Virus record (IMG/VR): IMGVR_UViG_3300040811_001959
Direction: 5' to 3' (one strand)
Length of the DNA: 64,000 nt
DNA from: a virus
Lineage: Duplodnaviria; Caudoviricetes
Below, piece after piece: positions 28,084-50,300 of this stretch. The notes beneath the pieces were generated by a model that had not been told where the DNA came from, ran no database searches, and worked only from the letters and a program-made list of their open reading frames with translations. The position numbers and the translations under genes are program-made. How positions within the stretch are numbered: the stretch's first letter is position 1; every line of letters begins with the position of its first letter.

Positions 28084-28800
28084 ATGATTTCCTGGAGCAC
28101 CACCTCCAAAGAATGTGTTTGCACAACTTTGGGCACTATATGCATGATGGTTAAATCCGCCACCTGAATGTAAATTTAAATTGCCACCCGATCCGTTTCC
28201 GCTCACTCCTCCTGAGTGTTGATTCTGTCTATTAGCTCCATGACCTGCACTTGCACTTACATATGGTCCAAAACTACTTCCGCCTCCATTACCTCCTGCA
28301 CCAGAATAATATGTACCACTGCCACCGCCACCTATAGTTACTCCTACAGAACTGATTCCTGTTACATCAAGATATCTCTCAGCATAGCCACCGGCACCAC
28401 CGCCTTCTCCGTGACCACTGCCACCACCGCCACCGCCTTGTACTTGAACTTTGATATATCTTACATTTGCAGGTCTAGTCCATGTACCATTCCCTGTAAA
28501 AACACTCATTGATCTTAAACCATGTTCGTGGTAATCTAATGAGCTACCTGTACTTCGTATAGCTTTGAAGGCTCCTCCTAAAGATGTTAATCCGGTTCCG
28601 CCTTTTGAAGTTGGTAATGTACCAGTTGTTTTGCTATTTGAATTTACAACAGCATCGTCGGCAAATTTGTTTGCGGTTATAGAATCATCAATCAAATTTG
28701 CATTTACTATTTGATCTGTTCCTATATTTGATTGTAGTAAAGTGTTATCAATTAAGCTGTCGTTTGTATAATTTTTTAAAGTCTGATAATCAAACGCCAT
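27949..28800 (-). CDS. Glycine-rich fibre / adhesin-like protein, paralog A
   Basis: Same architecture; start probably the second Met (28800, 'MAFDYQ', matches paralogs and SD AAGGA spacing). Confidence 0.7.
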   Translation of the reverse strand: MAFDYQTLKNYTNDSLIDNTLLQSNIGTDQIVNANLIDDSITANKFADDAVVNSNSKTTGTLPTSKGGTGLTSLGGAFKAIRSTGSSLDYHEHGLRSMSVFTGNGTWTRPANVRYIKVQVQGGGGGGSGHGEGGGAGGYAERYLDVTGISSVGVTIGGGGSGTYYSGAGGNGGGSSFGPYVSASAGHGANRQNQHSGGVSGNGSGGNLNLHSGGGFNHHAYSAQSCANTFFGGGAPGNHPQGGHFAHNHQGYSAPGTGGAGAHFHGHRGSDGKPGIIIITEYY

Positions 28801-28808
28801 AGTCATCC

Positions 28809-29620: not shown

Positions 29621-29628
29621 TTATTTAT
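29621..29628 (-). promoter_or_regulatory. Late promoter-like motif ATAAATAA overlapping the stop of the 2697-aa gene
   Basis: Minus-strand TGATAAATAA, about 10 nt before SD AAGGAG of the 29600 gene. Confidence 0.5.
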
Positions 29629-32600
29629 CATCTCAAAAAGTAATTTAATGCTAATGGGACTCCTGTTATGCCTCTAGTAAAATTAGTTGTAACATTAAAT
29701 GTAATTGATGTTCCTGTTACTGTATTGATCTCATTTGTAGCAATGTAAATATCTCCAGCTGTCAACGAGTTAACATTTAATGCAGCACCACCACCACCAA
29801 TCTGGGCTTCAATGTAAGCTTTTATAGCTCTTTGAGTTGGTATAACTGTATCACTATTAGCAGTCATAAATGGATCTGTTGAGAATTCACTGACTGTTGC
29901 AGAACTACCACCAAGTGTTACTTCTCCTAATGTCAACTCTTGTAATCCTGCAATATTAAATGCATCTGCATTTAAAGTAGCAATACCTGTTGATTGTTCA
30001 ACATTAAATAAATTTCCTACCCTAAAGTTTCCGTCCTGATCTGTTGCTGTAAAGAAAACCCTACCGCCATTTGACTCAACAGTTTCTTGAGCTTGGACAG
30101 GATCTTGTAAAGGCAAATTTGGATAGTTTGTAGTTATAAAATTTCCAGTACCAATGTCAAGGAAGTCATGACCAGTAAGTCTTACTTGAGAATATCTAAT
30201 ACGCATTGTTATAGGCGTACCGTCTTCAGGGGATTGTATAGCTTCAACGGAAGGAGAAAGATTTAAAAATCCTGTGTAAGATCCATCGGTATCTCCTAGG
30301 AAAGAAACAGTGTTTACAAGTTTAAATACAGTGTCTGGTAAATGATCAAAAACTACATTTGATCCAGCAATAGGTCTTTCTGATAATCTTCTAACAGCAA
30401 TATACAAACCACTTTGATAAAAATCAGCATACCCATTTGACGATTCTGCTGCAATAGATCCTGATGCTGCTTCGTAACCTTGCCCTCTATCTATAAAAGT
30501 TGGGTTAGCCAGCACGCCGTTACCCATTCTTACTGTATATGTAACATCATAGATGTTATTAGGATCAGTTATTGTCATTGTAGGTGCTCCTTCATAGTAT
30601 CCGCTGCCTGGTTCAACTAAACGCACAGCAAATATTTTTTCATTTGCTATGCTCGGTCGTCCTATTGCTCTTACACCTAACTTTATCATAGAAATATGAT
30701 CGTCTACGTCTGCTCCTTTGACTACCCAACATCCTTGATGATTTGGATTGCCAAATGCCAGTGCATCAAATCCATTATTAGCAGTCGGAGCTGCTGTTAC
30801 AGTTCTTAACACCCAATTAATACCATCAGTTGATGTTCTTAAATTTTCACCTTGTACATCATCAATAACAACAAATTGACCTTGACCATATTTAATTTTG
30901 TTGCCCGATCCTTTACTTGATCCATCAGATGGTAAATCAACAAGTGTCCAAGTTTCTCCTCTGTCTATTGAGAATAATGCGTCATTTTGATCTTCTGATA
31001 TAATTATAAATCGGTTGTTGCCATACGCTATGTTAGCATAATTTCTTATTGCCGGAGCAACAATTTGAGTCCAAAGTCCTGGATTTTGATGATTAGCCCA
31101 AATAATTTCATCACTATTGTATTTTACTGCAACTAACCGGTCAGATCCAAATGTTAAGCCTACAAATCCCACACTTGGCAATGCATCTGTATATTGTAGC
31201 CACGATAAGCCTGCATCATCAGATACAAATATATGTCTAGAATTTTCAAATCCTAAATAAAATTTATTCCTTCCGTATGTGATAAATGGTTCACTATCTT
31301 GGGCTGCAGGAAGCGATACTGCAGCCCAATTGTCGTTATCATTACTTACAAAAATTTGATTTGGACTTGTACTTTGAGTTACAATTATTGTAGCACTAAC
31401 AGCATATTCACTTGAGCCATCATTGAATATAGCATTTGCTATTTTAGCTGGCCCTGACTGCCCGGTTCCTCCTACAATTTGTTGCGTCCACATCATACCA
31501 TCGGTGCTTTTTTCAATATTTTGACTTGAATTACCTACTGCAATAAATGATCCACTGCAACCTAAACCTTCCTGATCAAAATAAATAATTGCTCCAGTTG
31601 TACTATCAATTGATGTAACTGTTAGCACAAGATCGTTTATAGGGGTCATTCCTCCTAATTGTGTTCCTATAATTGTTATTGTATCACCTCTTGCATAGTC
31701 TTGACCTGCATTAACAATTGAAACTAAATATTTGCTTCCTTTTCTAATTACTGTAAATGTTGCACCAAACCCTACAACAGATACTTCTAAATCAGGTGTT
31801 AAATTACTGTATTCTACAGTGGTATAACACCATGCAATATCTGAAGTTGGATGACTTGCACTTAAAGTTGCGCTTGTTGAGCTGTATGGCGGATCAGTAA
31901 ACGAAACTTTTGGTTCAATTTGATAAATTGAACTTGCATTTGGAGCAACAATAGGTGTTCCAGGAAATAAATGTTCCCACCCTGGTGAATCGTCGTCTTT
32001 GACTACTGTTGCAAGTTTACTACCAGAACTGTATGTATCGATAGTTCCGTACTGCCCAACTCCTATGCCACCTGTAATGAATATCCTCATAGTTTTGCCT
32101 GAGTATGCAGTATCTGTATTTCCATCTGTAGCAGCAAGGGTAATATTTGCAGCCGTCACTACGCCATCGACATCTGTTGTAAGCAATCCAGTTTGAGCTG
32201 TATTTGAAACAAGTAAATATCCCGATCCGCCAAATTGTTCTTCGTCTCCTGTAAGATCCGTAATCCTAATCCGGTTTACAGCATTATCTCTAAATTCGTC
32301 TGCATATGTCTCTGCATTAATACCGTTGCCAAATACATTAATTCCTGCTTCGGTGTAATCATTTCCAGCATGATTAAATTCCACATTTAAAATTTTATCA
32401 CCATCTGCGTTTACTTGACCTATTTCTGCATTATATTGCAAACGATTGTCAACTATACAGGTAATTGGTATTTCGTCAGCATCTACTCCTTCGGCAACCG
32501 AACCAAAAGTACCGTAACTGTTATTACCGTTTGTTGCTCGTATTCTTCCGCCTGCTTCTGCTAGGTAACCTATGTGGGAATAATAAGTAAATACGGAAAC

Positions 32601-35600
32601 AAGTTCTGCTCTACCATTATTAGTTATCCATGCTCCTATACCATCACTAATAACCTGTGTAAAGTCATTTGAAACGATTGAATCGTTTCCTCCGTTATGT
32701 AGTGCGCCGTCTATTTTTTGACCTATTGCAGCATGACCAAATGTTGTAAGATTTTGAACATATGGAGATCTTGTCATAATCCATACACTTTCGTCATCTG
32801 GTCCCCATCCTGGATCCAGTGAGGCATATGCTCCTGCAGTTGGTCTTCTAGTTCCAAACTCATTGTTAGGTGATAAATCGCCGTTTAATCCATCAACTGT
32901 TTGTAATCGTAAACCAGTACCGTTCCGTAAGTAATACATATCCTCTTCACGAGAACCAAGAACAGCATTTACATAATACCTAGCAGCATATTTTGATTTG
33001 TAATTTGCCGGAAACTGGAAGTTTACTTGATATGATCTTAATTTTGTATCTAATGTAAATGTTCGTTGATATTCTTTAGGATGTACTAAATCCCAGCGCA
33101 TTGCGTCAACAATATAACGCATGTCTCTGCGACATAATGCAGTATTGTATTCATACCATTTTTCAACACCTAAATTAATTGTAGGATAATCTTGCGTTAT
33201 GATAAGAAATACACCACTTGCATCTTCTACAGTAAATTCATTTTCTGATAATATTTCGGAAACTACATATTCATTTCCAAATGCAATAGGAAACGTTTGA
33301 CCAATATCATTTTCAGGATAGGCATTGTCTAAATCAATAAATTTTATTGACATACCGGCATCAAGCCATTCGGTACCATTGGTCATGGTTAATCCGCTAT
33401 TTGTAGATGATATGGAAGTTACAGTTCCTGCAAACCAATTATCAACATAATTTACTGCTTCTTCTACAATGAAATCTTCATTTAATTGAAGAATTCTGTT
33501 TGTTGCCCACAAATCTGTAAAAGCTGTTTGCTTATTATTAGCTTCTGCTGCTACACCAAAAATTATGTCATTAACAAATTCAATAGCGTATCGTAATGCT
33601 TGTTTTGCCGGAGTCGATAATACGATAGCATCGGCTTGCTGCAAAGCATAAAAGTTTGCAGCCAAAGTCGCATCTTTTTGATATCCATATACTTTTGCAC
33701 TAGGTTGTCTAGCATAACTGTAAGCAGCAACTATACTTGCAAAGTTTTGATTTATAGTCCAATCGTATATTGCAGCATCAAAAATTAATGCTAAATCTCT
33801 TGTACATTTACTATGATTAAAATCAAATCCACTATAAGTTGTTGTGATACCTTGCAACGTAGCTTTTATATAGGTATCTGCGTTATTTGTTATTGTTGCT
33901 CCTGCTGCAAGGGCATCTGCGGTTTGCCAATCTAATGAAGGAGCAATGGCTGTAGCTAGAAAATCGTATTGGTTTTGAGAAATATTACCGGTAACTATAT
34001 CTCTCAGCGTATCAATCTTACCAGTTTCAGTAGGAGTTGTAAAATTAACAATGTCTGTATAAGGCTGTCCACTGATATTATTATTTGCTGCTTCCTTACA
34101 ATTAGTTGCTAAGGCTGAATATAATTGTATACTTGCTGCTCTTTCTGCAGAAGTACCATAAACTGGTTCGCCTGTAATATTATTATAGATCGATCTAACA
34201 TGATTTAATGTTGCTATATTGCATCCACTTGCGTCTGGAGTTTGATCATAATTTATATCATATGCCCATGCTTCGATCATTCTTGCTAAATCTTGTTTAC
34301 ATTTTGCTCTAAGATCAGTGCCTAATCCTTGCCAATAAGCATTAGCATTAGCTGTAAAATCAACAATGAAGTCTCTATTTTGAATTAATAAAATTTGAGT
34401 ATAGGTTCTATTAGGATAAGACGATCCTGATAAATCATGATATGTAACACTAGGAGCAGAATCGTCTCCGTCTATAAAAATGCTTTTAATCAAATTTAAT
34501 GATGAGGTTACAATTGTTGCTGCTGCATCTCCGTCTGTTGTTTCTAATGCTTCCATTCCAGCAACAGACTGATTCTTTAAAAGATCGATAGCATACAATT
34601 CTTGTTGCTGTTGTTCATTTTTTACTTTAGCTGATTGTAAACGATTGTAAGCATATCCAGAATACACCCCCCAATAATTAGATTGAAGCATACTATCATA
34701 AAATGCAGCATCTAATATATATCCGCAATCTCTTCTACAATAGGCACCTTTGTAAGTAAAATCTCCAAAATGGGTAATGATAAAATCAATAGTATTTTTT
34801 TGTATTGTATCATATTGTGCTTCAAGTAATGCTTTATCATCTAATAGATATTGTGGAGATGTAGTAATATCAGGATATACATAAGACGGTAAATTATTTA
34901 CATCTGTAATTGTTGTGATTACATCGTTCATTAAATCAAATATGTAATTACTAGCGGATAACGATGCATTGGTATTTGTAATTACTTGCTGGACATTTGT
35001 TTGATATGGAGGAGAAATTTGATTATTTTGAACTACACTCTGGAGCATTGCTTGTAAATATCCATACGCATCAAGAGTTGCAACTTTTTCTGTGCTATCA
35101 ATTACAAATACTCCTTCTGTTCCTCTATAGTATGCAAGAGCTGCAACTAAAGATTGCCATTGACAACCTAGTTGTATATCATAACATAAACCATCTAGTA
35201 AATAACCTACATCTTGTAAGCATTTTGTTCTACTATAATATAGATTAGGATAGTTAGTATCAAGAAATCCTTTAACCTCAGCTTTTAAAAATTCTCTGTT
35301 TCGTAGTATGTTATCTCTTGCATACCCTCCATCTGTGAAATTAAATGTATCTATCCACTGTACCTCTAATTTTGTACCTGTACCATGATCTATTAATCTT
35401 TTAATTAATCTAGTTAATCTTTCAGCAGAATAACCTGTAGTTGTATTCGCAGTAGGCCATTCTGTTATTTGAGCTTCATTATTATTATCAGTAGGTGTTA
35501 TTGATATTCCTTCAACTATTCCAGCTATTTGTGTTTCAATGTGATTTAATGCGGTATAGGTATAAAGTGGATCAGTTGCAGGTGTTAAATCTTCTTGATT

Positions 35601-37721
35601 TTGTCTAGGATATACTGTTACAGATCTAAGTTCATCGCCCATTATACAACATAATGCCGGTACTTGGATTGGTAAAACTTCATAGTATTTTCCAGTTGCT
35701 ACCCTAATTAAAGTATTTGTTTCGATCTTTGCAGGAAGGTTATTTGCATTGCCAGCTGTTATAGCATCAGTGATTAAGGTAATTAACTCTGTAACTCTTC
35801 CGTACGCATTTTCGTTTTCTAAATTTATATTTTTCCATTGAGAAACAACAGCAGAAGAATTATCTCCGTTTACTACCTGATAACTATTGTAACCAGTTAA
35901 ACCAATTTCCGGAGGATCAGTTTGATTTAAAACATGTTCCATTAACTGCCATGCATACACTAAGCTTGCAACAGTTTCAGTTTTTTGGCCTAAATAAGGA
36001 GATCCTACAGTATCATTAATGTATGATAAAGCAGCTTCTCTTGATTTTACATTTCCGCCATGTGTTAAATCCCAAATTACAGCATCTACAATAAATCCTA
36101 TATCTCTTTCACATTTTTCTGCAAAATATGTAAAATTAGTTGTAAAGGGATCTATACCTTCTGTTATTTGATAATCAGTCCATTCAGTTGTTTCTCGTTG
36201 AATATAAATTCTGTTTAATTCTAATAATCTTTTTGCATTAGGATATTTTGTTCCTTTGTCAATTTCTTGACAAGCAAATCTTATACTTTTCCAGGGTGAT
36301 TCTACAGTTGTTCCTCTAATAGGCGCAGGTTGATCTACACCTGTAGTGGATACATAATAAACATCTGGGTTTTGCCCAAAAAATGTCCATTGCGGTTCAT
36401 TATTAGGTGAAACACGTAATACTTGTCCTTCTTTACCGATAGGTAGTCTTGTAGGACCTGATCCACTAAAATAAACTATATCTCCTTGTGTAGTTAAGGC
36501 ATCAGTTTCTGCTCCAATTGCTAAGATATTCCAATATGTTCCTGTGATATCACGATCTGGTCTACTATTTTCTGCCCCGCCTCCTGGTGCAATTTTAGTT
36601 TCTGTTGAATAATCGTCATCTTCGCTTACATGGGACTCTATGCAAATGTAAGTAGCTGTATCATATCTTACCACGTCACCAATGACATAATATGCATCGT
36701 CTGCCCATACGCCTCTCCATTTTAATCCTGTATTGAGCCTATCCCAATATTGATTCCATGACTGATTCTCGCCTGGTTCTATGTTTGAATTATCAGTATT
36801 TGCAACATATACATACCCACCAACTGTAACTACATCTCCAGTTCTATAATCTTGAGCACTAGAATCTGCTCCCCATTCTCCTTGGAAAGAAAATCCTTTT
36901 GAAAATACAGCCCAATCCTCAATTGAAGACGTAGGAGCAATGTTAATATTTTGTCTTAGAGAAATGTATTGATACCCGCCCCATGTTACAATATCTCCTT
37001 GTTGGTATGTCGTTGTGTAGGTCCAATCGTTTTCAAAACTTAGTCCTTCTACAAAAACATCCCAACGATAATTATCACTAGCAAACTCAGCACCCGATGT
37101 ATGAAATTCATTACAAATCATTAATCCAGCACCATATTTTACAACATCATAAACTTTATAACGTGTATTTTGGGTCCATACTCCTTTCCATTCTACACCT
37201 GAGGTAAATCTGTCCCAATTTACAGCATCATTTTCTAAACCTGCAGCAAAATTATTAATGGAAGTATGAGCGGTATTACAAACAAATGTTCCGCTTCCGT
37301 ACTTTACAATATCACTTGCAAGATAATAAGTCGATGGTTGCCAATTTCCTTTCCAATCTAAACCTGTTGCGAATGTGTCCCAATTTGCTATTTCGTCTGC
37401 TAAAGTTATATTTGTGTCACTAGAGGAAGTATGAACTGTGCTACAAATATATAGATTTGCTCCATATTTAACAATATCGTTTAGTACATAGTAGGTATTG
37501 TTAGTCCAATTTCCTTTCCATGTTTGGCCATCTGACATTAAATTCCATTTAGGCGGAATTACCTCAAAGTCAGTAAAGAATAAAGTAGAACTTGTATGTC
37601 CTTCGATGCAAATATATACCCTACCCCTATAAAATACTACATCATCCTTGTAATAAACTGTATTATCTGCCCATTCATTTTTCCAAACAAACCTAATCCT
37701 ACCTAATTTAAATTCTGCCAT
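29628..37721 (-). CDS. Giant virion fibre/baseplate-associated protein (2697 aa)
   Basis: N-term tandem W-x5-Y-x3-D-x-V-x-Y-x-G repeats (CBM5/12-like), six helical C-x-[RQ]-D repeats, beta-helix-like region ('GDELRS', 'RSPYVQN', 'VSNDFTQV'), BNR/propeller-like repeats; paralog of 37759-43194. Confidence 0.75.
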   Translation of the reverse strand: MAEFKLGRIRFVWKNEWADNTVYYKDDVVFYRGRVYICIEGHTSSTLFFTDFEVIPPKWNLMSDGQTWKGNWTNNTYYVLNDIVKYGANLYICSTVHTSSSDTNITLADEIANWDTFATGLDWKGNWQPSTYYLASDIVKYGSGTFVCNTAHTSINNFAAGLENDAVNWDRFTSGVEWKGVWTQNTRYKVYDVVKYGAGLMICNEFHTSGAEFASDNYRWDVFVEGLSFENDWTYTTTYQQGDIVTWGGYQYISLRQNINIAPTSSIEDWAVFSKGFSFQGEWGADSSAQDYRTGDVVTVGGYVYVANTDNSNIEPGENQSWNQYWDRLNTGLKWRGVWADDAYYVIGDVVRYDTATYICIESHVSEDDDYSTETKIAPGGGAENSRPDRDITGTYWNILAIGAETDALTTQGDIVYFSGSGPTRLPIGKEGQVLRVSPNNEPQWTFFGQNPDVYYVSTTGVDQPAPIRGTTVESPWKSIRFACQEIDKGTKYPNAKRLLELNRIYIQRETTEWTDYQITEGIDPFTTNFTYFAEKCERDIGFIVDAVIWDLTHGGNVKSREAALSYINDTVGSPYLGQKTETVASLVYAWQLMEHVLNQTDPPEIGLTGYNSYQVVNGDNSSAVVSQWKNINLENENAYGRVTELITLITDAITAGNANNLPAKIETNTLIRVATGKYYEVLPIQVPALCCIMGDELRSVTVYPRQNQEDLTPATDPLYTYTALNHIETQIAGIVEGISITPTDNNNEAQITEWPTANTTTGYSAERLTRLIKRLIDHGTGTKLEVQWIDTFNFTDGGYARDNILRNREFLKAEVKGFLDTNYPNLYYSRTKCLQDVGYLLDGLCYDIQLGCQWQSLVAALAYYRGTEGVFVIDSTEKVATLDAYGYLQAMLQSVVQNNQISPPYQTNVQQVITNTNASLSASNYIFDLMNDVITTITDVNNLPSYVYPDITTSPQYLLDDKALLEAQYDTIQKNTIDFIITHFGDFTYKGAYCRRDCGYILDAAFYDSMLQSNYWGVYSGYAYNRLQSAKVKNEQQQQELYAIDLLKNQSVAGMEALETTDGDAAATIVTSSLNLIKSIFIDGDDSAPSVTYHDLSGSSYPNRTYTQILLIQNRDFIVDFTANANAYWQGLGTDLRAKCKQDLARMIEAWAYDINYDQTPDASGCNIATLNHVRSIYNNITGEPVYGTSAERAASIQLYSALATNCKEAANNNISGQPYTDIVNFTTPTETGKIDTLRDIVTGNISQNQYDFLATAIAPSLDWQTADALAAGATITNNADTYIKATLQGITTTYSGFDFNHSKCTRDLALIFDAAIYDWTINQNFASIVAAYSYARQPSAKVYGYQKDATLAANFYALQQADAIVLSTPAKQALRYAIEFVNDIIFGVAAEANNKQTAFTDLWATNRILQLNEDFIVEEAVNYVDNWFAGTVTSISSTNSGLTMTNGTEWLDAGMSIKFIDLDNAYPENDIGQTFPIAFGNEYVVSEILSENEFTVEDASGVFLIITQDYPTINLGVEKWYEYNTALCRRDMRYIVDAMRWDLVHPKEYQRTFTLDTKLRSYQVNFQFPANYKSKYAARYYVNAVLGSREEDMYYLRNGTGLRLQTVDGLNGDLSPNNEFGTRRPTAGAYASLDPGWGPDDESVWIMTRSPYVQNLTTFGHAAIGQKIDGALHNGGNDSIVSNDFTQVISDGIGAWITNNGRAELVSVFTYYSHIGYLAEAGGRIRATNGNNSYGTFGSVAEGVDADEIPITCIVDNRLQYNAEIGQVNADGDKILNVEFNHAGNDYTEAGINVFGNGINAETYADEFRDNAVNRIRITDLTGDEEQFGGSGYLLVSNTAQTGLLTTDVDGVVTAANITLAATDGNTDTAYSGKTMRIFITGGIGVGQYGTIDTYSSGSKLATVVKDDDSPGWEHLFPGTPIVAPNASSIYQIEPKVSFTDPPYSSTSATLSASHPTSDIAWCYTTVEYSNLTPDLEVSVVGFGATFTVIRKGSKYLVSIVNAGQDYARGDTITIIGTQLGGMTPINDLVLTVTSIDSTTGAIIYFDQEGLGCSGSFIAVGNSSQNIEKSTDGMMWTQQIVGGTGQSGPAKIANAIFNDGSSEYAVSATIIVTQSTSPNQIFVSNDNDNWAAVSLPAAQDSEPFITYGRNKFYLGFENSRHIFVSDDAGLSWLQYTDALPSVGFVGLTFGSDRLVAVKYNSDEIIWANHQNPGLWTQIVAPAIRNYANIAYGNNRFIIISEDQNDALFSIDRGETWTLVDLPSDGSSKGSGNKIKYGQGQFVVIDDVQGENLRTSTDGINWVLRTVTAAPTANNGFDALAFGNPNHQGCWVVKGADVDDHISMIKLGVRAIGRPSIANEKIFAVRLVEPGSGYYEGAPTMTITDPNNIYDVTYTVRMGNGVLANPTFIDRGQGYEAASGSIAAESSNGYADFYQSGLYIAVRRLSERPIAGSNVVFDHLPDTVFKLVNTVSFLGDTDGSYTGFLNLSPSVEAIQSPEDGTPITMRIRYSQVRLTGHDFLDIGTGNFITTNYPNLPLQDPVQAQETVESNGGRVFFTATDQDGNFRVGNLFNVEQSTGIATLNADAFNIAGLQELTLGEVTLGGSSATVSEFSTDPFMTANSDTVIPTQRAIKAYIEAQIGGGGAALNVNSLTAGDIYIATNEINTVTGTSITFNVTTNFTRGITGVPLALNYFLR

Positions 37722-37758: not shown

Positions 37759-40700
37759 TCATCTCAGTGCATCTCTAAAATAATATGATAAAGCTAACGG
37801 ACTACCTTTAACACCTTTATTTTGTGCTCCTATAAAATCTGCTCTTGTATTAACATTTAATTTAAATCCTGTCGTTGTACTAAAAATATTTTCATTTGTA
37901 CCAGCACGGACTTGACCAGCTATTAACTCGTTAGTTAAAACTTCGCCACCGCCTGCACTAATTCTTGATTCAATAAAGGTTACTACAGCTCTTTGAGTAG
38001 GTATGATATTATCAGAATCTGCATAAAAATTTACATCTGTAGAAAATTCTCTAATTACTGTACCTGATCCACCTAACCTTACTCCACCTAATGCTAGTTC
38101 AGACAACCCATCTAATGAAAAGAAATCTGCACTAATAGTTACAATACCAGTAGCTTGTTCTACAGCAAATAATTCTCCTGTCCTAAAGTTACCGTCTTGA
38201 TCTGTTGAAACATAAAATACTCTTCCTCCTCCATTTTCTATTACTTCTTGTTCTGGTTTAGCAATAAAAAAGGCTCCTTCGGCATAAAGAGCAGGATAGT
38301 TTGTATCAACAAAATTACCAGTTCCAATATCTAAAAAGTCGTGACCTGTAATTCTACACTGCGAATATCTTTCTCTTATTTCAATTGATCTATTATGTGT
38401 CAATAAATCTTTATTTTGAATTTTTGGACTGATCCTAAAGTCTGCTCTCAATGTTCCTGCTATACTACCATCTGATCCTAAAGGATCTATAGTTACAAGT
38501 GTAAAAATTCGTAAATCATCAGGATTTTCTTCGTCATAAATTCCATCTATGCGAAGTTGCGCACCTGGACCTGGATAGACGGTTAAACCATCGACAAAAA
38601 TATCTACATCATTAGATGGTATCCTATCTGCATACCCGTTACCTGATATAGTAACTCGAGTTGTACTAGATCTGTAACCAATTCCTCTATTTATAAATGT
38701 AGGTTGTGGTAAAACATAGTTACCTATCCGTGTAGTAACAAAAGCTTGAGACACCCATGAATTGTCAACAATTTCTAGCTCATAATCGTTACCATTTATA
38801 TACCCACTACCTGGATCCCATATAACGATTGCATCTATAGTAGAACTATCAACTTTTGCTCTTGCAAGTGCTCTTTTACCTGTTTGTATAAGCAAAATAT
38901 CACTATCATTATTTGAAATTAATCCATAATGAAACCCTGAATTGCCCTTGTATCCAAAGCTTATAGCAGACCATACGTTAAACGAAGGTAGTGTTTGTTC
39001 AGTCCAATCTATACCGTTTTCAGAAACTGCTAAAATATTTGAATTTGCAGTCCCTGTTATAAAATATAAACCATTTGAATTTTGTATTTTATTATAAGAG
39101 CCAGCAGGCGTACTGTATTCCACCCATCCATTTATAGATTCTGAAATAGATACAAGTAGTCTTCCTTCAGTTGTTAAAGCTATGATGTGTCCAGCGTTAG
39201 ATGTAATACTTATGAATTCGTGTGGTAACCCTGGTTGTTCAGGATCTGGTTGATTCAACGGAGTTGAATCCGCTTCAACCGTCCATATAATGTCTTCTGT
39301 ATCTTCGTCCCAGACTCCTAAAGCTATTGCCCTTGCATCTGATAAAGCAATAAATTTATTGTATTCATACGTAAGTACTGTCCAATCTGTTGTAACTGAA
39401 TTAGGAATTTCAGAACTAGCCCATGATGTACCATTAGTTGAGTAAAATGCAGTGCTTGAATTTGTCAAAATAACAAATATTCCGTCTCCGTACGCAATAT
39501 CTTTTATATTTCGTGTAGAAGGTAGGCTTGCTTGACCCCAGTTTGTTCCTGTTCTTGAGTAGGCAATAGTTGAACTTGTTCCATAAGGAATGCATATAAA
39601 AATTCCATTTCCATTTATAATTTTACTCCATGCTTGAATTAAAGGTAAAAATATTTCTGTCCAAGTTTTTCCATCTATAGAGTACCCAGAGAAGTTACCA
39701 TCTGAAACAACCATCCATTTTCCTTCTAATCCTTCTCCTGTAATCTGGATATTTGTAATAGTAGATGTGCTGTCATCTGTAACTTCTAAAACTTTTATTG
39801 TTAGATCATTTATGTCTACTTCTCCACCTAACTGATCTCCTTTTATTACAAAAATATCATCTACTGCATATCCGGCTCCACCGTTTAAAATATCAACTGA
39901 ATACTCTTTGCCTTGTTTTGTTACTCGAAAATTAGCCCTTAACGGAATAATTCCAACTACTTCACCATTGCCAAAGTCTAAAGATATGTTGTAAATTTCG
40001 GTTGTAGGCCCCCAGATTACGTCAGTCCATAATTTAGAATTACTTAAAAGTTCGGCAGTTACTGAAAATCCTGGATGTGGTACAATTATCCTAGGTTCAA
40101 TTGAATATGACGTACTTGCTGTAAGTAACGGTGCAATTGTTGTTCCTGGAACAATATGATCCCATCCTGGTTGATCGTCAGATTCTCTATAAATTGTTGC
40201 CGTCCTGTAATTTTGAGATAAATCATCATCCTCGTAAGCTTGTATGTACCCATATTGTCCTGTACCAGGTCCTGATGTAATGACTAGACGTTGTCCTACA
40301 TAATCATCTGCTGTAAATAAATCAGTTGCTGATAACTTTATATCTAAATCTGTTCCTAACTGAGCATTGTTTTTTCGAATAGTATATCCTAATCCTCCTA
40401 TCCTTGTACTATCTTGCGGTTCTTGTAATCTAAACTCAAAAATTCCGCCTTGCCGAAAACTGTTATATTCGCTCTGCACAAAATTTCCTGATCCTACTAC
40501 TGTTGCAGAAGCATTTGTATAATTTTCTCCGCAATGTGCATATTCAAATATTAGTAATCTGTCTAATTCTCCACTATCATCTGAAATTTCTCCAGCAAAA
40601 GCCTGATAAACTGAGGCTTCGGTCGTCCTTGTGTTAACGGTTGCATATCTAGGAGTTTCAGCATCGTCGATTCCGAGCGCAACTGATCCATACTCTCCGT

Positions 40701-43194
40701 AACTATTATTACCGTTAGTTGCTCTTATTGTTCCGCCATTTTCTGCAAGATATCCTACATAGCAATAATAGGTAAAAACACTTACTAATTCTACCCGGCC
40801 TCTATTTAAAATATATGCTCCAATTCCGTCACTTAATACTTGGGTAAAATCATTTGCTACCATTGATCTATTACCGCCATTGTGTAATATTCCGTCAATG
40901 TGTGCGCCTATACATCCAGTACCTATTGTTGTTACTCCTTGAACATACGGAGATCTATTATTAATCCATGCTTCTTCGTGGGCAGGTCCCCAACCTGGAT
41001 CTAAGCTAACAAATGCTCCGCCAGTAACTCTTGTTGTATTAATAAGAGGTGCTGCTCCGGTCAATTGCCCTACTAATCCTTCAGTAGTACAATTTCGTAA
41101 TCCAGTGATGTCTCGTACATAAAACATATTTGTATGTTTAGATCCAATTATTTGATTAGCTAATAGAGTAGAATATCTAATAGCTTTATAATTTCCAACA
41201 TAGTTAAAATCGTAAATAAATCCATTTAAAAACATTTCAATGTCTAATTTTATTTTATCTGGATCAATTTCATCGGACAAAGTTGTTGCAGTAATCAAAC
41301 ACTCTTGTGTAAGGAATTCATAATTATTAATTATTAGAGAACGTGCTCGTTGAAAGCTTTCTGAACTTATATTATTTGTGCCAGTAAGTTCTATATTTGA
41401 CGGACTACCTTGTACAATTGATGTAATATTTTCTTCTATATTTGCAAATAAATTATTCATTAAATTTATTACAACTGTTGGATCCTCAATTTCTAGTTCA
41501 GGAAAAACTTGTACTGCTGTATTGCCTAATTGCGGCGATATATTTTCTCCGTTAATCAGAGAAGGAAAAATTGTAGCTAAATGATTTAAATATGCTATTG
41601 TAACTTCACTATCGTCAAACCCTGTATTATTTGGTAATATAGAAACAGATCTAAGCTCGTCGCCCATTACTACTGTCATTTTAGGAATTACAATTGGCAA
41701 TACTTCTTCGTATCTTCCTGTACTTACAGAAATTTTGCAAGGCATTATGTTATTTTCTTCAACAAATCTGCAAGCATATTGTATAGTTCTAAATGCGTGA
41801 TATGGATCTAAACCTCTTCCTCGAGCATCAATACCAGTTGGTGATACATATACAACAGTTGTTTCTGTTTGATGCAACGTTCTCCAGAACAATCTAAAAT
41901 CGTCACTAACAGATAATAACTGATCTAACTCTCCAATTCTCAAGCCTGTTGGCCCAATTGTGCTATTATCACCTACTGCTTCTCTTTGGAAATCGTAGGT
42001 AAGTAAGTCACCAAAAAAGTTCATTCCTGCTTCACTACCAGATTGTACAATTAAATCCCAGTAAAAAAAACCTTTGCCATTGTCGCCTGGAAAATTATCT
42101 CCATTTGATAAATGAGGACTGTTACATTTCCATGATTGGCCTAGGTAATAAATTATATCATTTATAAAATATTGTACATTTATCCTCCAAAAATTTGCCC
42201 ATTTTTGTCCAGGTATAAATACTTTCCATTTTGTTTCGTCTAAGACTTCTTCGTAATTTTGTCCTTCTAAAATAGCTTGACATTCATATAACTCGCCGCC
42301 AAACAGAGCAAGATCACCGGGTTTATACTGATTTCCTATAATGTAGTTACCGGTTATAGAATTAGAGGAAACCAATTTGTTCCAATAGGCTACACTATCA
42401 TCTGTATTTGTCGGAGCAACATTTACGTTACTAGCAAGACATACATACCACGAACCACCAAATTGCACTGTATCACCTGCACCGTAATATGTGCTTGCAG
42501 TCCATTCGTCTGCATATACATATCCAGGTATAGCTACTTCAAAATTGTGTCGATAAAAGTTAGGTCCTGACACATGTGATACAATAACAACATATATTGA
42601 TCCACCAAAATTTACATAATCATTTTTTTTATAAAAAATTCCTTCTGTGTAATCTCCTATAAATTGATGACCATCTGTAAATAAATTCCATTTTGTTTCG
42701 TCATCTTCTAACAGTGTTCCAGAAGTATGAGACGTAATACATCTATAATTCAAACCGCTATATTTTACAATTGCACCTGCTCCAAAAACTTTATTTGGTT
42801 CCCAGTCCTTAACATATTCACTGCCAGTAATAAAAACATTCCATTTGCTTATGTCATTTGAAAATGCTCCTGAAAAATGTCCATCATTGCACAACCATAA
42901 CGATCCGTCAAATAGAACAATATCTCCTTGTTGATATTGATAAGAATTCTGCCATCTTCCTATAAAAGCTTGACTGCCGGTCATTACTTTCCAATGTATG
43001 TCTGGTAAAGGAGGATTGCTATTCGGAACGATTGCTTCTAAATCTACGTTAAAATCAGCATTTGAAACATGTTGCTTAAAACAAACATAAGTTTTTGCTC
43101 CTACTCTTACTACATCGTCTTTATTGTAGCTATAATTTGGCTGCCATTCACCTAACCAATTATATTTGAATCTTTCTAGTTTAAATTCTGACAT
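37759..43194 (-). CDS. Giant virion fibre/baseplate-associated protein (1811 aa), paralog of the 2697-aa protein
   Basis: Starts MSEFKLERFKYNW (cf. MAEFKLGRIRFVW); shares 'GDELRSV', 'SLDPGWGP', 'NDFTQV.SDGIG', 'YSQ.R.TGHDFLDIGTGNF..TNYP', 'TQRA', 'G.PLAL.Y'. Confidence 0.75.
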   Translation of the reverse strand: MSEFKLERFKYNWLGEWQPNYSYNKDDVVRVGAKTYVCFKQHVSNADFNVDLEAIVPNSNPPLPDIHWKVMTGSQAFIGRWQNSYQYQQGDIVLFDGSLWLCNDGHFSGAFSNDISKWNVFITGSEYVKDWEPNKVFGAGAIVKYSGLNYRCITSHTSGTLLEDDETKWNLFTDGHQFIGDYTEGIFYKKNDYVNFGGSIYVVIVSHVSGPNFYRHNFEVAIPGYVYADEWTASTYYGAGDTVQFGGSWYVCLASNVNVAPTNTDDSVAYWNKLVSSNSITGNYIIGNQYKPGDLALFGGELYECQAILEGQNYEEVLDETKWKVFIPGQKWANFWRINVQYFINDIIYYLGQSWKCNSPHLSNGDNFPGDNGKGFFYWDLIVQSGSEAGMNFFGDLLTYDFQREAVGDNSTIGPTGLRIGELDQLLSVSDDFRLFWRTLHQTETTVVYVSPTGIDARGRGLDPYHAFRTIQYACRFVEENNIMPCKISVSTGRYEEVLPIVIPKMTVVMGDELRSVSILPNNTGFDDSEVTIAYLNHLATIFPSLINGENISPQLGNTAVQVFPELEIEDPTVVINLMNNLFANIEENITSIVQGSPSNIELTGTNNISSESFQRARSLIINNYEFLTQECLITATTLSDEIDPDKIKLDIEMFLNGFIYDFNYVGNYKAIRYSTLLANQIIGSKHTNMFYVRDITGLRNCTTEGLVGQLTGAAPLINTTRVTGGAFVSLDPGWGPAHEEAWINNRSPYVQGVTTIGTGCIGAHIDGILHNGGNRSMVANDFTQVLSDGIGAYILNRGRVELVSVFTYYCYVGYLAENGGTIRATNGNNSYGEYGSVALGIDDAETPRYATVNTRTTEASVYQAFAGEISDDSGELDRLLIFEYAHCGENYTNASATVVGSGNFVQSEYNSFRQGGIFEFRLQEPQDSTRIGGLGYTIRKNNAQLGTDLDIKLSATDLFTADDYVGQRLVITSGPGTGQYGYIQAYEDDDLSQNYRTATIYRESDDQPGWDHIVPGTTIAPLLTASTSYSIEPRIIVPHPGFSVTAELLSNSKLWTDVIWGPTTEIYNISLDFGNGEVVGIIPLRANFRVTKQGKEYSVDILNGGAGYAVDDIFVIKGDQLGGEVDINDLTIKVLEVTDDSTSTITNIQITGEGLEGKWMVVSDGNFSGYSIDGKTWTEIFLPLIQAWSKIINGNGIFICIPYGTSSTIAYSRTGTNWGQASLPSTRNIKDIAYGDGIFVILTNSSTAFYSTNGTSWASSEIPNSVTTDWTVLTYEYNKFIALSDARAIALGVWDEDTEDIIWTVEADSTPLNQPDPEQPGLPHEFISITSNAGHIIALTTEGRLLVSISESINGWVEYSTPAGSYNKIQNSNGLYFITGTANSNILAVSENGIDWTEQTLPSFNVWSAISFGYKGNSGFHYGLISNNDSDILLIQTGKRALARAKVDSSTIDAIVIWDPGSGYINGNDYELEIVDNSWVSQAFVTTRIGNYVLPQPTFINRGIGYRSSTTRVTISGNGYADRIPSNDVDIFVDGLTVYPGPGAQLRIDGIYDEENPDDLRIFTLVTIDPLGSDGSIAGTLRADFRISPKIQNKDLLTHNRSIEIRERYSQCRITGHDFLDIGTGNFVDTNYPALYAEGAFFIAKPEQEVIENGGGRVFYVSTDQDGNFRTGELFAVEQATGIVTISADFFSLDGLSELALGGVRLGGSGTVIREFSTDVNFYADSDNIIPTQRAVVTFIESRISAGGGEVLTNELIAGQVRAGTNENIFSTTTGFKLNVNTRADFIGAQNKGVKGSPLALSYYFRDALR

Positions 43195-43956: not shown

Positions 43957-44388
43957 TTAATCGTCGACTACTGCACCACGATAAAAATCAAGGGTCATTA
44001 GATACTGATAAGCCTGTGTAAGTTCATTATTTAGATTATTAATATCTAATAAAAACATGCATCTTGAATCGTATGCTGCATGTCCTACATGTTGGCCGTA
44101 TTCATTATCTGTAGGATACATGCCTATAAAACCTACAGGACGCATACCTTTTTCTTTATCTTTTTTTGATGCCCAAACAGTTATTGCAATAGTGCAAACA
44201 TAGCCAGCTTTCCAAAGAACTTCAGGGCCTTTGTCTCCTACTTCTGTAAAGCCAGATTCAGTTGAATCGTCTGGTGGGGGTAAAATGTCACTTACTCTTT
44301 TTTGGGTTGATATTTGTGTAATTACATGATATGCATTTGGTATTGTATATGATGTACCTGCTAGAGTATAATCTTTTATTAAAGCCAT
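43957..44388 (-). CDS. Putative tail fibre assembly / accessory protein
   Basis: 143 aa, coupled (TAATG) to the chaperone-bearing fibre; C-term 'QAYQYL.TL..Y..A.DD'. Confidence 0.45.
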   Translation of the reverse strand: MALIKDYTLAGTSYTIPNAYHVITQISTQKRVSDILPPPDDSTESGFTEVGDKGPEVLWKAGYVCTIAITVWASKKDKEKGMRPVGFIGMYPTDNEYGQHVGHAAYDSRCMFLLDINNLNNELTQAYQYLMTLDFYRGAVVDD

Positions 44389-47300
44389 TATTTAATCCTG
44401 TCTAATAATTTATTTACTAAATCTTTTAATTCTATAATTTCATTTTCTAATTTATCAATTTTTTTCTGCTGGGTTTTAATTGCTTCAATAAAAACACCTG
44501 CCATTTTTCCATAATCAACACCATATTGGTCAATATCAGCTGCGTAGGTTACAACTTCAGGAAGTATTTTTTCAACATCTTGTGCAATCACTCCTACCTT
44601 GCGGGTTTTTGCTTCGTCATCTTTGCGATTATAATACACCCCTTGTAATTTTAATACAATGTTTAAAGCATCGTCAACTGCTACAACATTTTCTTTTAAT
44701 CTTGCATCAGAATACGCTACAATATCACCGGTGCTATAAACTGCTTTGTCTACATATAACCCATAACTACTACTTGTTGTGCTTGTATTAATTCCTGTAC
44801 AATTATTATTCCTGTTATGATAAAGATACCACCGTGATGTAGAATTATTATTAAAATAAATTCCACCGTTGCCTCCCGAGTCACCCATGTAATGCATGTA
44901 ACTGTATGAATCTAGAAAACCGCCATACCCTCCCCTACTCCCATTCATTCTCCACGGTGTATACGATGTTAGAGTATTTGGATACCAATGTGCGTCGTTT
45001 GCATTAGAATAGATGCCTTGGGTGCCAAAATTCATCCAATTACCGGAATAATTATAACCACTACTTCCGTTAACTTGAAATACTACTGTATCTGAATCAT
45101 AATCGCTTGTAAATCGAACGCCATTGTAGCTGCTATTTGCTCCTATTTTTATTCCCGTATGATAATTAATACGTAAATCAGGATACGGTGTAGACCATGC
45201 ACCTCCTTCTTGATATAAAGCATAGGCATGAGCACTAGCTGATGCTGGTTTTCCACTGTCTTGACCAGTTTTGTAAAACCAAAGTGTTCCTACGCTAACA
45301 TCATAATTATCAGCTCCACTTACTGAGGTACCAAGTGCTGGAAAATGTTTTCCGTCAAGTGTGTCAGCATCTAGTCCTGAACTAGGACCATCATTACCTG
45401 CATGCCATACCGTATAGGCATTGCTTTCTGCAGTGTATTGCAATCCATTTATTCCATCATTTATATCTAAATATTCATCAGTTCTGTCATTATATAGCCG
45501 CAATGAACTGTTATTTACATATTGAATATATGCTCTTCTAGTAGTATCTTGCCAAAAAGATATATAAGGATTGCCTGTAGTGCTTTGAGTTTGAATTTTT
45601 ATCTGTTCATCACCATTTCTACGTAGAGTTAATAATCCAGTTGATGTATCATCTGCGTCACTCCTTATAAATGATCCACTATCAAGTCCGTCTACAGTAT
45701 CAGCATCTAAACCACTGCCTGTTCCATCATTACCTGCATGCCAAACAGTGTTGCCTAGGATTGTCATTCCGGCACCTGTACCTCCTAAACTGATAGTATT
45801 TGACCAACTAGGTATTGTTCCGTTGCTAACAAGTACAGTATCGCTCAGTCCTATATTCAATTGTGTCAAGCTGTTGTTAGAACCACTGTAAATCAAATCT
45901 CCTTGAGAATACGTTGTAAGTCCTGTACCACCTTGAGCAATTCCTATTGCTGCTGATTGGTTTGTAGGATCTAAGAAATATGCTGCACTAAATCCTCCTA
46001 ACAATCCTGCATCAATTACTCCTGATTTGACACTTACTTTTCCGTTAGTCACTGTAAATTGACTTTTAAGAAAGCTAGATAATCCTTCTGAACTATAGGT
46101 ATTATCATTGGGATTTGATGCTTGATCAGAAGCTCGTGTAATATCAATTACTAATGAATTATAATAATAATTGATATTACTTGTTGTAAAATAATCTCCT
46201 GTAAATGTTATTGGACTATTAGTATTTGGTCTAATATTCTGGAGTGCATATTGCCAAGAACTGTCTCCCCTAAGGAACGTTTTATTAGATGCAGAGCCTG
46301 CTGCTGCTAATCTAGAGGTTGTTATAACGCCACTAACAATGTTTGATGCATCTATAGTAGATTGAGCTATTCCGCTCCAGTTGGTTGCAACAGAACTTGA
46401 ATAATTGTAAGCCCCAATTACTTTAACGTTTTGCTCTCTTACTGATAAAGTACCAGCACCTACATCTGTAATATCAACTGCTGATGTTGTAGCTCCGTTG
46501 ACACTGCTTGTTGCATCTGCTACGTTATTGTGTAAACTAAAAGAATTTGTTGTAACACTACCTATCCAGTAAGAACTAAAATCATTTAAACCTCCGGGCA
46601 TTAATGAAGAGCTCGATAGTCTAACTGGAGTTCCAACAGTTAGTCCATGGCTAGGGTATATTATCCTATTTTCGTCAACATTTATTTCATATCTTGTTAG
46701 ATTGTGTGATCCGGTGCTTGATCCACTTAAACTTACTGCAGTTCCACTAGTAAAAGCATAATTTGTATATAGTTCAATTGAATCTGTTGTTATAACTTTT
46801 ACAAAATATGTCGTATTATTAGTGAGTCCTGTAATTGTTAAATTACCTCCATTACTATACCTAACCGGATCGCCGTCAGCAAATCCGTGCGCTGTTATAT
46901 TAATGTAATTATTAGCGTAATCAACATCACCGCTTTGAGCAATATCAGCGGCATTAAATGATTTTACAATCGATCCTGTTTGATTGACTCCAAAGATTGG
47001 AGCATTTGCATCAGTTATATAGTCTGGAATAGCAGCACTAGGAGAAAATTTAATATAACTACCTGTTAACTCTAAGAACAATCTATTTTGGATAGAAGTT
47101 ACAACTCCGGCAAAACCGCTGCCAGTTCCGCTGAAATCTGCATTTGAAACTGTTATAGTATCGCCTACTGTCCAATATTCACTCGCATCAACTATATCAA
47201 TATTTGTAATTACACCATTTGATACTGTAACATTACCAAGAGTATTACTGGCTCCGTTTCCGTATAACACTGCATTGTAGACAATAGTGTTTCCTCCATT

Positions 47301-50300
47301 GCTATATCCTGATCCTCCATTAGTTATATTAAGTGTGTACAAGATACCAAGTCTTAAAGGACTAACAGAACCAGTTCCTGTTGGACCATTAACCAAATTA
47401 CCTTCTGCACCTGAAACTGCTCCTATAACACTCACCGTTGTGCTAAAATTATAACTTTGTGAAGGGTCTAATACTAGAAATTGATTTGTGTTATCATTGT
47501 TTAGAAAATAATTTTCAACAATTGTTGTTACTGGTCCTACAACTGTTGGAACTGAAGCTGCACCAAGAAATGTACCATTATCTATCAATTGATTAGATGT
47601 ATTAAATGTGCCTGTTGGATTTACAAGTATTAAAGTTGTACCGTTGATAACAGCTTCTTTAACAGTACCAGATGCTCCACTGCTATCTTGAATTAAGAAC
47701 ACGCCTTTAACAATGTATGTTGCTGATGTAAGAGTTAATTCTATTTGATCATATGTTTCACTTGCATTATCACCTGATAGAATTTCTGTTACAGGTACTG
47801 TATTCCATAATGTAAACCTACCTTCGTATGAATCTACATTGTAAGTGGTTACACCTCGACTAGGAGGTAATAAATCTGCGTTTATTTGTCCTTGACTATT
47901 TAGTAATACTAAAGCACCAGGAACAGCATTAGAACTAGCTTGTTTATCTAACACATCACCTAATCTATTAGCAAAAAAACTCCGCACTGCAAGTTGCGTT
48001 GATAATCTACTATTAAGAGCTCCGCCTGGCTCATTGTCGCCTAGATCAACATCAGTAGATATAGCATCAACTTCAACATCTGATAACGACAACTTCAAAA
48101 CTGCTAATGTTGTAATTTGGACTTCTGTCCTAAAAATGATATTACCAGATTTATTTTCAGCAACAATAAAATCGCCAACTTTAAAATCACCTAATTCATT
48201 TGTACCTGAACTGTAAACTCTACCTGGTAATTCTGATATCTGCTCAAAAGATGCACCTCTTCCTAAACCACCGTTTTGTGGTAATGCATTGTAGTCAATT
48301 CCTGATCCGGCATATTCCCATGTATGAGCCGACGAGTTTACAATACTTGGACGATGGAAATTTATTTTTTGTAATAATGCCTGGGCATATTGCAGAAAAG
48401 TATTTCCTTCAACTGTAGATTGAATTTGAAACTGTGAAGTCCATAAATCTGTACGTGATGCGGTACCTGCAACACCAATATTGCTTGAACTTCCATTAAT
48501 GCTAGTTATAGAGCTAGTTGCAGACCAAAACACTCGTTGTTGTAATTCATTTATAACGCTGTACTCTACTGATACAACTAAAACATTTGTTGCGCTATTG
48601 TATGAATAAACATAAGCATTATTTTCAAATCCATCTGTTTCTCCAACTATTGAATCACCAGGAGAAAAACTGTATGTTCCAGGATCTAAATTTAATGTTT
48701 GATAATTATTGTGATAATCTATCATCCTATCGACAAAAAATTCTTCTGGAAAAAGCAACAGTTTGTGATTACCTACACCAACTGCTGTAATATCTATTTG
48801 AGCTAATAATCCTTCGTCATTGTATAATTCAATAGTATCTTCATCAATAGTTTTTATGTAATAGATAGCCTGATCAACTAAACCAGGAATATCAATATTA
48901 CCGTCATTGCTGTACTGTGCAGGTGTACTATCTAATATACCATGTCCTACAATTGTTATTTGGTTTAAAGTTGCATCAATGTCAACTGCTGCATCAAATG
49001 TCTTAATTGGCTGTACGGCCTTGAAACTACTTGTTATATCTAAATTTGTAGTAGCATCTTTAATTCTAATTACAAATTGTTCAATAACTCTTCTTCCTGT
49101 TCCAATAGAAGTTATTGTAAAAACACCATTTGATGTTCCTATGTTTGCAATCAAACCTCTATCAAATGTAAAACTATTTTGGCTATAACCTGTTGCTCGT
49201 AAAGCAAAATAACCAAAGTTTGTGGCTGAGTTTGTAATAGATAAGTATCCACCAGACTGGCAGTATGAACCATTTAGGCAAAATATTTGAAAACAAGATA
49301 CAATTTGGGCATATCCGTCATTAGTTACAAGCCATCCTGTACCGCCAAATGATACCATTGTGAAAGCGTTAGCAACCATAGATTTACCTTGTTCAGGCAC
49401 ACCATCTGTTAAATTAACTGGAAATTCTGCTTCGTCTGGAAATTGAGGAATGTTAGGAGTAAGAACTTTTGATCCGTCAACTTTGACTCCATTGCCGCCT
49501 AAGAATGATATTATTGATGAATTTTGAATATATGGAGATAAAGTTATAGTTGGTTTATCTTTAGACAGACCAAAATATCCTGTCCTATCAACTGAACTAT
49601 CAGTAGGATCATCAAATGCTACCGCAAAATCAAATGTGTAATCTGGACGCAAATCATTATCAAGGCCATCTCGGAAAGTGATGCCAGTGAGATATGCTCC
49701 ATTCCTTACCCTAAACATATCTTTATTTGCATTCAATGGTCGAATAACAACTGCTCGCAAACTATCTCCTACAACAGAAACTAGATCTGGAATAATAATA
49801 GGATTGTCTACATAAAAATCTCCACTAGCAACATTTACTGTAACTGGAATAGTCCTAAAAGATGCTGCTGTAACTGTTCCACTATATGCAGTTTCTGTGT
49901 CTAATATATCTACAATGATATTGTATAATGCTAAAATATCAGTTTCTGTAGTTGAAGCAGTAAGAGCAGGATATTTTACTTGCTGTACTATATTCTGATA
50001 TTTTGCTGGATGATCTGCACTGTTAATAATGCTAATACTTAAATCTCTTATGAATTTTATAGATTCAACAGTTGCTGTTTTTTGATTGTTTATTACTTCA
50101 GTAACTGTTAAATAGCTTTCTCCTGCTTCAACGGATTTTTCATTTCCGCCTAGGATTAAATCAAAAACAACAGCATCAACAATTAATCCTACGTCTCTTT
50201 CGCATGTTGCTGAATTGTAAGTTAGGTTATTGTAAGTTGTAGTTATAAAATTTATTGTGGCCGAAATAGTTGTTCCTCTTAAGTTTTGAACATTTGTAAA

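Follow-up and report, generated by a model that had tools for sequence, protein, structure and literature searches.

The 64,000-nt stretch of DNA analysed here (hereafter the window) is part of a 144-kb IMG/VR record (IMGVR_UViG_3300040811_001959), a fragment of a phage genome that CheckV rates as ~39% complete. Its minus strand encodes a giant tail-fibre-type protein of 2697 residues, P0001, in which a short motif, C-x-[RQ]-D, recurs within a series of related helical modules. The tail sheath of the phage is nearest to those of the jumbo myoviruses Vibrio phage 2.275.O, PA5oct, Atu_ph07, and SCTP-2; to judge from the sequence, the source is an uncultured marine jumbo myovirus and not a T4-like cyanophage.

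A giant fibre protein with six repeated modules

P0001 matches the tail-fibre PHROGs 9851 (E 3e-186), 17885, 5342, and 4527, and it lies in a cluster of fibre genes, whose other products include fibre proteins, one of them with a Peptidase_S74 chaperone domain, and three tail-fibre-assembly PHROG proteins. The initial annotation, made from the sequence alone, had called it a virion fibre protein, and both the matches and the gene neighbourhood agree with this. The protein and its parts are as follows (module boundaries and scores come from the profile described below).

29628..37721, minus strand: tail-fibre-type protein P0001, 2697 residues (open reading frame (ORF) and translation; tail-fibre PHROGs; within the fibre gene cluster)
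36522..37721, minus strand: N-terminal CBM_5_12 repeats, ~residues 1-400 (Pfam PF02839, 78.9 bits, 5 stretches)
35829..36341, minus strand: module 1, residues 461-631, KCERD, Cys537 (122.7 bits; coordinates checked by translation)
34935..35459, minus strand: module 2, residues 755-929, KCLQD, Cys834, the module that was modelled (155.6 bits)
34524..34979, minus strand: module 3, residues 915-1066, YCRRD, Cys995 (94.0 bits)
34035..34547, minus strand: module 4, residues 1059-1229, KCKQD, Cys1141 (51.4 bits)
33513..34052, minus strand: module 5, residues 1224-1403, KCTRD, Cys1306 (113.5 bits)
32844..33392, minus strand: module 6, residues 1444-1626, LCRRD, Cys1530 (61.1 bits, profile positions 45-141)

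Translation of P0001 reveals exactly six C-x-[RQ]-D motifs, all at the places where the initial annotation had quoted them, with the cysteines at residues 537, 834, 995, 1141, 1306, and 1530 (codons at 36111-13, 35220-22, 34737-39, 34299-301, 33804-06, and 33132-34 of the window). This number is not a product of composition: among 20,000 shuffled versions of P0001 the motif occurs on average 0.125 times per shuffle and never six times, and a longer form of the motif pattern does not occur at all. A profile hidden Markov model (HMM), seeded from such motifs in 120 homologs, places each motif centrally within a helical module of ~150-180 residues, and the six modules score 51-156 bits against it. 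The feature as a whole spans 32844-36341; the repeats do lie within the narrower span given at first, 33085-36120, while the modules that contain them reach beyond it. Modules 2 and 4 have Gln in place of the motif Arg, and the match of module 6 is partial, with an insertion after its motif. Where no insertion intervenes, the cysteines of adjoining modules are 146-165 residues apart. This spacing equals the length of one phycobiliprotein domain, indicating that the modules adjoin with almost no linker.

Closer to the C-terminus, residues 2167-2258 (window 30960-31223, minus strand) contain two Asp-box motifs (S-x-D-x-G-x-x-W) and a weak BNR match, which suggests a sialidase-like beta-propeller in this part of the protein.

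Relationship of the modules to phycobiliproteins

In phycobiliproteins, Cys84 forms the thioether to the bilin, and Arg86 and Asp87 hydrogen-bond the pigment. The alpha and beta subunits of this family (PF00502; for example C-phycocyanin alpha, phycoerythrocyanin beta, and phycoerythrin beta) have in common with the phage modules a globin-type fold, a domain of ~160 residues, and a C-x-R-D sequence in the same register of helix E. The differences are also considerable. Phycobiliproteins are free-standing subunits of ~160-180 residues that form the alpha-beta discs of the phycobilisomes of phototrophs, whereas the phage modules are fused, in tandem, into fibre proteins of 2,000-6,000 residues. 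The two share only ~15% identity, and the modules add an invariant Asp(+14) and Tyr(+30).

Multiple lines of sequence comparison lead to this family. The Pfam profile PF00502 (Phycobilisome; cut-off 22.2 bits) is passed by three homologs, P0006 (29.3 bits, with a match to profile positions 14-141 of 155), P0030 (25.1 bits), and P0005 (23.3 bits). When 86 diverse modules are scanned singly, nine match PF00502 (best E 7.9e-5), the only Pfam family that is matched by more than one of them. A profile made from the 86 modules finds nine chains among PDB sequences, eight of which are phycocyanin alpha, at E-values of 0.02-0.33. With a single module of P0006 as the query, the seven PDB matches are phycobiliproteins without exception, among them phycoerythrocyanin beta (E 2.8e-4; residues 27-149 of 172). 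The initial annotation had aligned the repeats with the bilin attachment site, and the HMMER alignments give the same register: the module Cys-x-Arg-Asp falls on K-C84-x-R86-D87 of phycocyanin alpha, and the alignment to phycoerythrocyanin beta agrees with this. By contrast, a plain sequence search with residues 480-1620 of P0001 finds no match among PDB chains, and thus phycobiliproteins are reached only by a profile or by a more consensus-like single module. It counts against the assignment that none of the six modules of P0001, searched singly at E-values up to 10, matches PF00502 or any other Pfam family, and that a Pfam scan of the whole protein also lacks a PF00502 match. These modules are too diverged to match PF00502 on their own; at 51-156 bits, they belong to the same HMM family as the homologs that do.

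The predicted structure points in the same direction. An AlphaFold model of module 2 has a predicted local distance difference test score (pLDDT) of 85.5 and a predicted template modelling score (pTM) of 0.75. The initial annotation had proposed a Foldseek comparison of one repeat, and with this model the top 50 PDB matches are all phycobiliproteins (E from 4e-3, template modelling score (TM) ~0.5 over the full length). The VIA search, which is independent of Foldseek, is led by phycoerythrin (Z 12.4), far-red allophycocyanin (Z 11.6), and the bilin domain of ApcE (Z 11.0, with a root-mean-square deviation of 2.5 over 107 residues). Its nine best matches (Z 9.7-12.4) are members of the phycobiliprotein family except for rank 7, a bilin-binding photocobilin (Z 10.1); haem-sensor globins (globin-coupled sensors) and RsbR appear lower in the list, at Z 7-9.5. 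A shape search of the ESM Atlas gives TM values of 0.41 or less and is uninformative. In an AlphaFold model of three modules the individual domains are confident (pLDDT 84.5), and their mutual arrangement is uncertain (pTM 0.55). A search for module proteins that stand alone, at 76-342 residues, yields three fragments only.

ApcE, the core-membrane linker and third-best of the VIA matches, offers an architectural parallel, since it too holds a phycobiliprotein-type domain within a large structural protein. ApcE attaches its bilin autocatalytically. Unlike the phage fibre, it has one such domain with no tandem repeat, and it resides in the phycobilisome of a phototroph.

Together, the Pfam matches of homologs, the PDB searches with the profile and with a single module, Foldseek, and VIA all place phycobiliproteins first, in keeping with the globin/phycobilin fold that had been proposed initially. 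The six repeats are almost certainly genuine homologous domains of the phycobiliprotein/bilin-binding-globin family, set head to tail in the fibre shaft, with the Cys/Arg/Asp triad kept.

Other copies, the fibre cluster, and distribution

A search of the whole 144-kb record with the module HMM reveals further copies in a second tail fibre, P0121, and a degenerate copy in an 1811-residue paralog. These, together with a beta-helix-like domain that P0001 and P0121 share, are located as follows.

44388..51845, minus strand: tail fibre P0121, 2485 residues, with a C-terminal Peptidase_S74 chaperone domain (fibre cluster scans)
50907..51332, minus strand: P0121 module 1, residues 172-313, KCERD (HMM 98.1 bits; translation check)
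50409..50939, minus strand: P0121 module 2, residues 303-479, KCYRD (HMM 135.5 bits)
49920..50444, minus strand: P0121 module 3, residues 468-642, TCERD (HMM 118.9 bits)
41020..41499, minus strand: degenerate module in the 1811-residue paralog (ORF 37759-43194, minus strand; HMM 21.8 bits)
35586..35774, minus strand: first strands of the beta-helix-like domain of P0001, ~residues 650-712, broken by modules 2-6 (BLASTP, P0001 against P0121)
32487..32945, minus strand: resumption of this domain, residues 1593-1745 (BLASTP; contiguous in P0121)

In the degenerate module, Ile replaces the Cys and Leu replaces the Arg, with the Asp, the Tyr, and the other Asp retained. The comparison of P0001 with P0121 by BLASTP pairs residues 529-712 with 540-710 and residues 1593-1745 with 708-886. 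Because the beta-helix-like domain of P0121 runs contiguously across these two matches, modules 2-6 of P0001 represent an insertion of ~880 residues at the start of that domain. Thus, the phycobiliprotein-like array (window 32487-35774, P0001 residues 650-1745) behaves as an insertable cassette.

The N-terminal CBM_5_12 repeats of P0001 are also present in the 1811-residue paralog. Just downstream of the giant fibre gene, at 26208-28806 on the minus strand, are three tandem paralogs of 285-287 residues that belong to PHROG 863 (tail-fibre assembly; E ~1e-52 each). Four tryptophan-halogenase genes (PF04820, 267-345 bits), at 12119-16615 on the plus strand and 24058-25674 on the minus strand, flank a block of low GC content (26-28%) with ~13 small minus-strand ORFs (16820-24077), which lies beside the fibre genes.

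The module profile matches 1,596 cluster representatives, and the number of modules per protein ranges from 1 to 38, with up to 38 in proteins of ~6,000 residues. Among GenBank phages, tblastn matches only cyanophages, 70 records that include S-PM2, P-HM2, and S-CAM and S-RIM phages; fold matches in BFVD are to tail proteins of cyanophages and to uncultured Caudovirales. When the motif is back-translated to a DNA pattern and used to scan IMG/VR and cellular genomes, more than 120 IMG/VR contigs match, compared to just five stretches, each on a binned metagenome contig, in 185,579 species genomes of bacteria and archaea. This near-absence from cellular genomes indicates that the module is essentially virus-specific. 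The long IMG/VR contigs that carry modules are mostly 10-30% complete fragments of ~360-kb phages like that of the window. One sheath-related jumbo phage record (G047; IMG/VR, 175 kb, 49% complete) has its structural region present and no module, so the presence of modules varies within the jumbo clade. In the deposited S-PM2 genome (AJ630128.1, 165928-177267), tRNA features are annotated inside the giant coding sequence S-PM2p218, which looks like a problem of coordinates in the deposit. A literature search turned up no report of phycobiliprotein-like domains in phage fibres.

The putative bilin site and its possible role

The residues that correspond to the bilin site are strongly conserved. 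In 38 full-length orthologs of P0001 (median 42% identity), each of the six motif cysteines is kept in 36-38, while other cysteines of the same region are not conserved; the Gln that replaces Arg in module 2 is itself retained in 33 of the 38. A wider set of 2,199 modules from 267 proteins gives 96.4% for the Cys, 91.5% for the Arg (with Gln in another 5%), and 99.0% for the Asp. The cysteine on which the idea of a pigment site depends is therefore a conserved feature of the homologs. The Cys is surpassed by Asp(+14), present in 99.5% of these modules, and by Tyr(+30), present in 98%. Where the Cys is missing, the second residue of the triad tends to be missing as well: Arg, Gln, or Lys is also gone from 29 of 80 modules without the Cys, versus 35 of 2,119 with it. 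In 37 of the 80, an aromatic residue (Phe, Tyr, or Trp) stands in place of the Cys, a substitution that would fit the filling of a cavity.

A possible source of bilin is found in a complete relative of the phage. This genome, G010 (363,943 bp), is syntenic with the 144-kb fragment: 73 of 191 ORFs match it, at a median identity of 45%, and these cover G010 from 1 to 135 kb. G010 encodes 12 modules in three fibre genes. At ~287 kb, which is outside the region that the fragment covers, a gene for heme oxygenase (80 bits) adjoins one for a ferredoxin-dependent bilin reductase (54 bits). At 49.6% identity, the reductase resembles that of Pelagibacter phage Mosig far more than it does cyanophage PcyA (23-27%), and on this basis it belongs to the PcyX type, known from uncultured phages of the ocean. 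Phage bilin cassettes of the type hemO-pcyX(-alaS) were reportedly the subject of Ledermann et al. 2016. Among 376 IMG/VR contigs chosen solely for this reductase, the five longest all carry modules, and each of the three that were tested for heme oxygenase (G041-G043) encodes it. Since the contigs are kin, this indicates that the clade has both traits, and it is not proof of a functional link. The contigs sampled for a related sheath are all fragments, at most 53% complete, none of which reaches the distant cassette region. G010 itself has no psbA, CpeT, or CpeS by search, and psbA was likewise not found in the ~39% of the genome that the 144-kb fragment represents.

The G010 pair (284-291 kb; L144:4282-11263) is bordered on one side by phage genes for HSP70, HSP20, and ClpS. 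On the other side are genes for the curli-secretion proteins CsgF and CsgG, with an SH3 domain; these are a hint that the host is Gram-negative and not a cyanobacterium.

Attachment of a bilin would be the most economical explanation of the conserved triad, although our confidence that it is the correct one falls a little short of even. In this explanation, each module would most likely still carry a bilin, held covalently by the motif Cys. During infection, the cell would produce the pigment with two enzymes that this phage lineage encodes, a heme oxygenase and a ferredoxin-dependent bilin reductase, and no known lyase would take part in its attachment, as in the BBAGs, which are related to phycobiliproteins. 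Once assembled, the fibre would consist of biliprotein domains in series, and their pigment might lend them stability or render the fibre responsive to light. We hold the explanation as a whole, and the binding of bilin by the modules as its core, with the same tentative confidence.

The BBAGs are instructive here. BBAG-1 and BBAG-3, non-photosynthetic phycobiliprotein paralogs of heterotrophic bacteria, carry CXRD like the modules and attach bilins without lyases (Rockwell et al. 2023, PMC10151467). Their genes are linked to those for heme oxygenase and a bilin reductase; the jumbo relatives likewise have hemO and a reductase with no known lyase. The likeness of BBAGs to the phage modules is drawn from their description, and there are clear differences: the BBAGs are single soluble proteins encoded beside the biosynthesis genes, whereas the modules of the phage follow one another within a structural protein, whose genes in G010 are ~80-240 kb distant from the cassette. 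According to a 2024 paper that deals with tetrapyrrole cassettes of phages, no purpose is known for hemO-pcyX in phages; as acceptors of the bilin, it names BBAGs or phytochromes as mere possibilities (PMC11480375).

Several observations weigh against bound bilin. The initial annotation had suggested looking for ho1, pcyA, pebS, and lyase genes, and the outcome is mixed. Neither the window nor the 144-kb fragment (~39% of the genome) contains a hemO-pcyX cassette, and the fragment has no heme oxygenase, bilin reductase, or CpeT. G010 has the synthesis genes, but searches of the complete relatives for a lyase of the CpeT or CpeS type were negative, and the modules would thus have to attach bilin autocatalytically. 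The co-occurrence of modules and bilin genes in the jumbo clade is co-inherited and thus not independent evidence. Mosig, whose complete genome has hemO and pcyX, has no module when searched in the same way as the other genomes. By the module profile there is also none in P-SSM2, which carries pebS and ho1. Phage bilin genes must therefore have some use that is independent of the modules. Finally, the high conservation of Asp(+14) and Tyr(+30), which have no counterpart in phycobiliproteins, suggests that part of the conservation may be structural.

Two candidates for a partner lyase were considered and rejected. CpeT is found in only one of 40 long module-bearing contigs and is absent from G010. 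In S-PM2, CpeT lies 1.5 kb upstream of the giant module-bearing gene; T-type lyases serve Cys153/155 and not the Cys84 site, and for this reason the adjacency is not counted as support. A gene of 369 codons beside the G010 reductase belongs to no recognisable family and shows no sign of encoding a lyase.

The main rival, which we consider the less probable and indeed rather unlikely, is that the modules are apo structural spacers: descendants of bilin-binding globins that now serve as rigid helical beads to lengthen the shaft, with the triad and other polar residues forming an internal network of hydrogen bonds and salt bridges in place of the pigment. The free variation in copy number, from 1 to 38 per protein, is what one expects of a spacer that sets length, and phycobiliproteins have no counterpart of the conserved Asp(+14), Tyr(+30), and Asn(+20). 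The copy in the 1811-residue paralog demonstrates that the fold survives without the Cys and the Arg, and Mosig and P-SSM2 demonstrate that phage bilin genes do not need modules. In addition, cyanophage particles are not known to have been described as coloured. What a spacer leaves unexplained is why an extracellular protein should keep a Cys in 96% of 2,199 modules that share ~20% identity, at the very position homologous to the attachment site, and why this Cys is lost together with the Arg.

It is improbable that the conserved residues serve some other chemistry of Cys and Asp, such as a metal on the threefold axis of a fibre trimer, inter-chain disulfides, or redox switches. The fibre proteins gp37 and gp12 of T4 have metal sites of this kind on their axes, and the Cys, the two Asp, and the Tyr are all plausible ligands. 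However, the site equals the known bilin site residue for residue. As for disulfides, a single conserved Cys per module and module counts that are often odd (3, 5) do not fit a scheme in which all cysteines are paired, and in a trimer the three cysteines of a given level would always leave one unpaired.

Very unlikely is a convergent or chance likeness to phycobiliproteins, with the repeats forming an unrelated helical bundle. The E-values are indeed modest (0.02-0.33 in the profile search of PDB sequences, 4e-3 for Foldseek with a TM of ~0.5), and helical proteins often yield middling structural Z-scores, but four independent kinds of search give the same family first and the same register, with no other family recurring. 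The binding of haem, which the initial annotation had offered alongside bilin, can be set aside as the least credible reading of all: although globin-coupled sensors occur further down the VIA list (Z 7-9.5), phycobiliproteins outrank haem globins in every search, and no His is conserved in the module (at most 10% in any profile column).

Returning to bilin-bearing modules, a role for such a pigment might be sought in the light dependence of adsorption seen in some cyanomyoviruses. P-HM1 and P-HM2 fail to adsorb in the dark, whereas P-SSM2 adsorbs in the dark; the light-dependent adsorption of S-PM2 is independent of host photosynthesis, and light-sensitive tail fibres have been named as one possible cause (Liu et al. 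2019, PMC6628666). The module profile finds four matches in P-HM1, four in P-HM2, ten in S-PM2, and none in P-SSM2. The presence of modules is thus concordant with light-only adsorption, in what amounts to at most three independent phages. It is conceivable, though we regard it as doubtful, that these tail fibres are holo-biliproteins, whose modules accept the bilins made by phage hemO-pcyX, pebS, or pcyA and whose pigmented shaft gates adsorption as a light sensor. If true, such a shaft would explain why S-PM2, P-HM1, and P-HM2 attach only in the light.

Until now, phycobiliproteins have been known as subunits of the light-harvesting antenna, and their BBAG paralogs as soluble bilin-binding proteins. 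A phycobiliprotein domain that serves as the repeat unit of a fibre, with its attachment site intact, is a place where nobody has sought pigment. It makes two questions testable: what phages without photosynthesis genes do with the bilins they make, and what causes the light dependence of adsorption that, in some cyanomyoviruses, does not depend on host photosynthesis. Cultured phages exist on both sides, S-PM2, P-HM1, and P-HM2 with modules versus P-SSM2 with none. Should the modules prove to be apo, they would still be a notable case in which a pigment protein of the host type has been turned into a structural spacer of variable length; if they bind bilin, the virus particle itself may carry the pigment.

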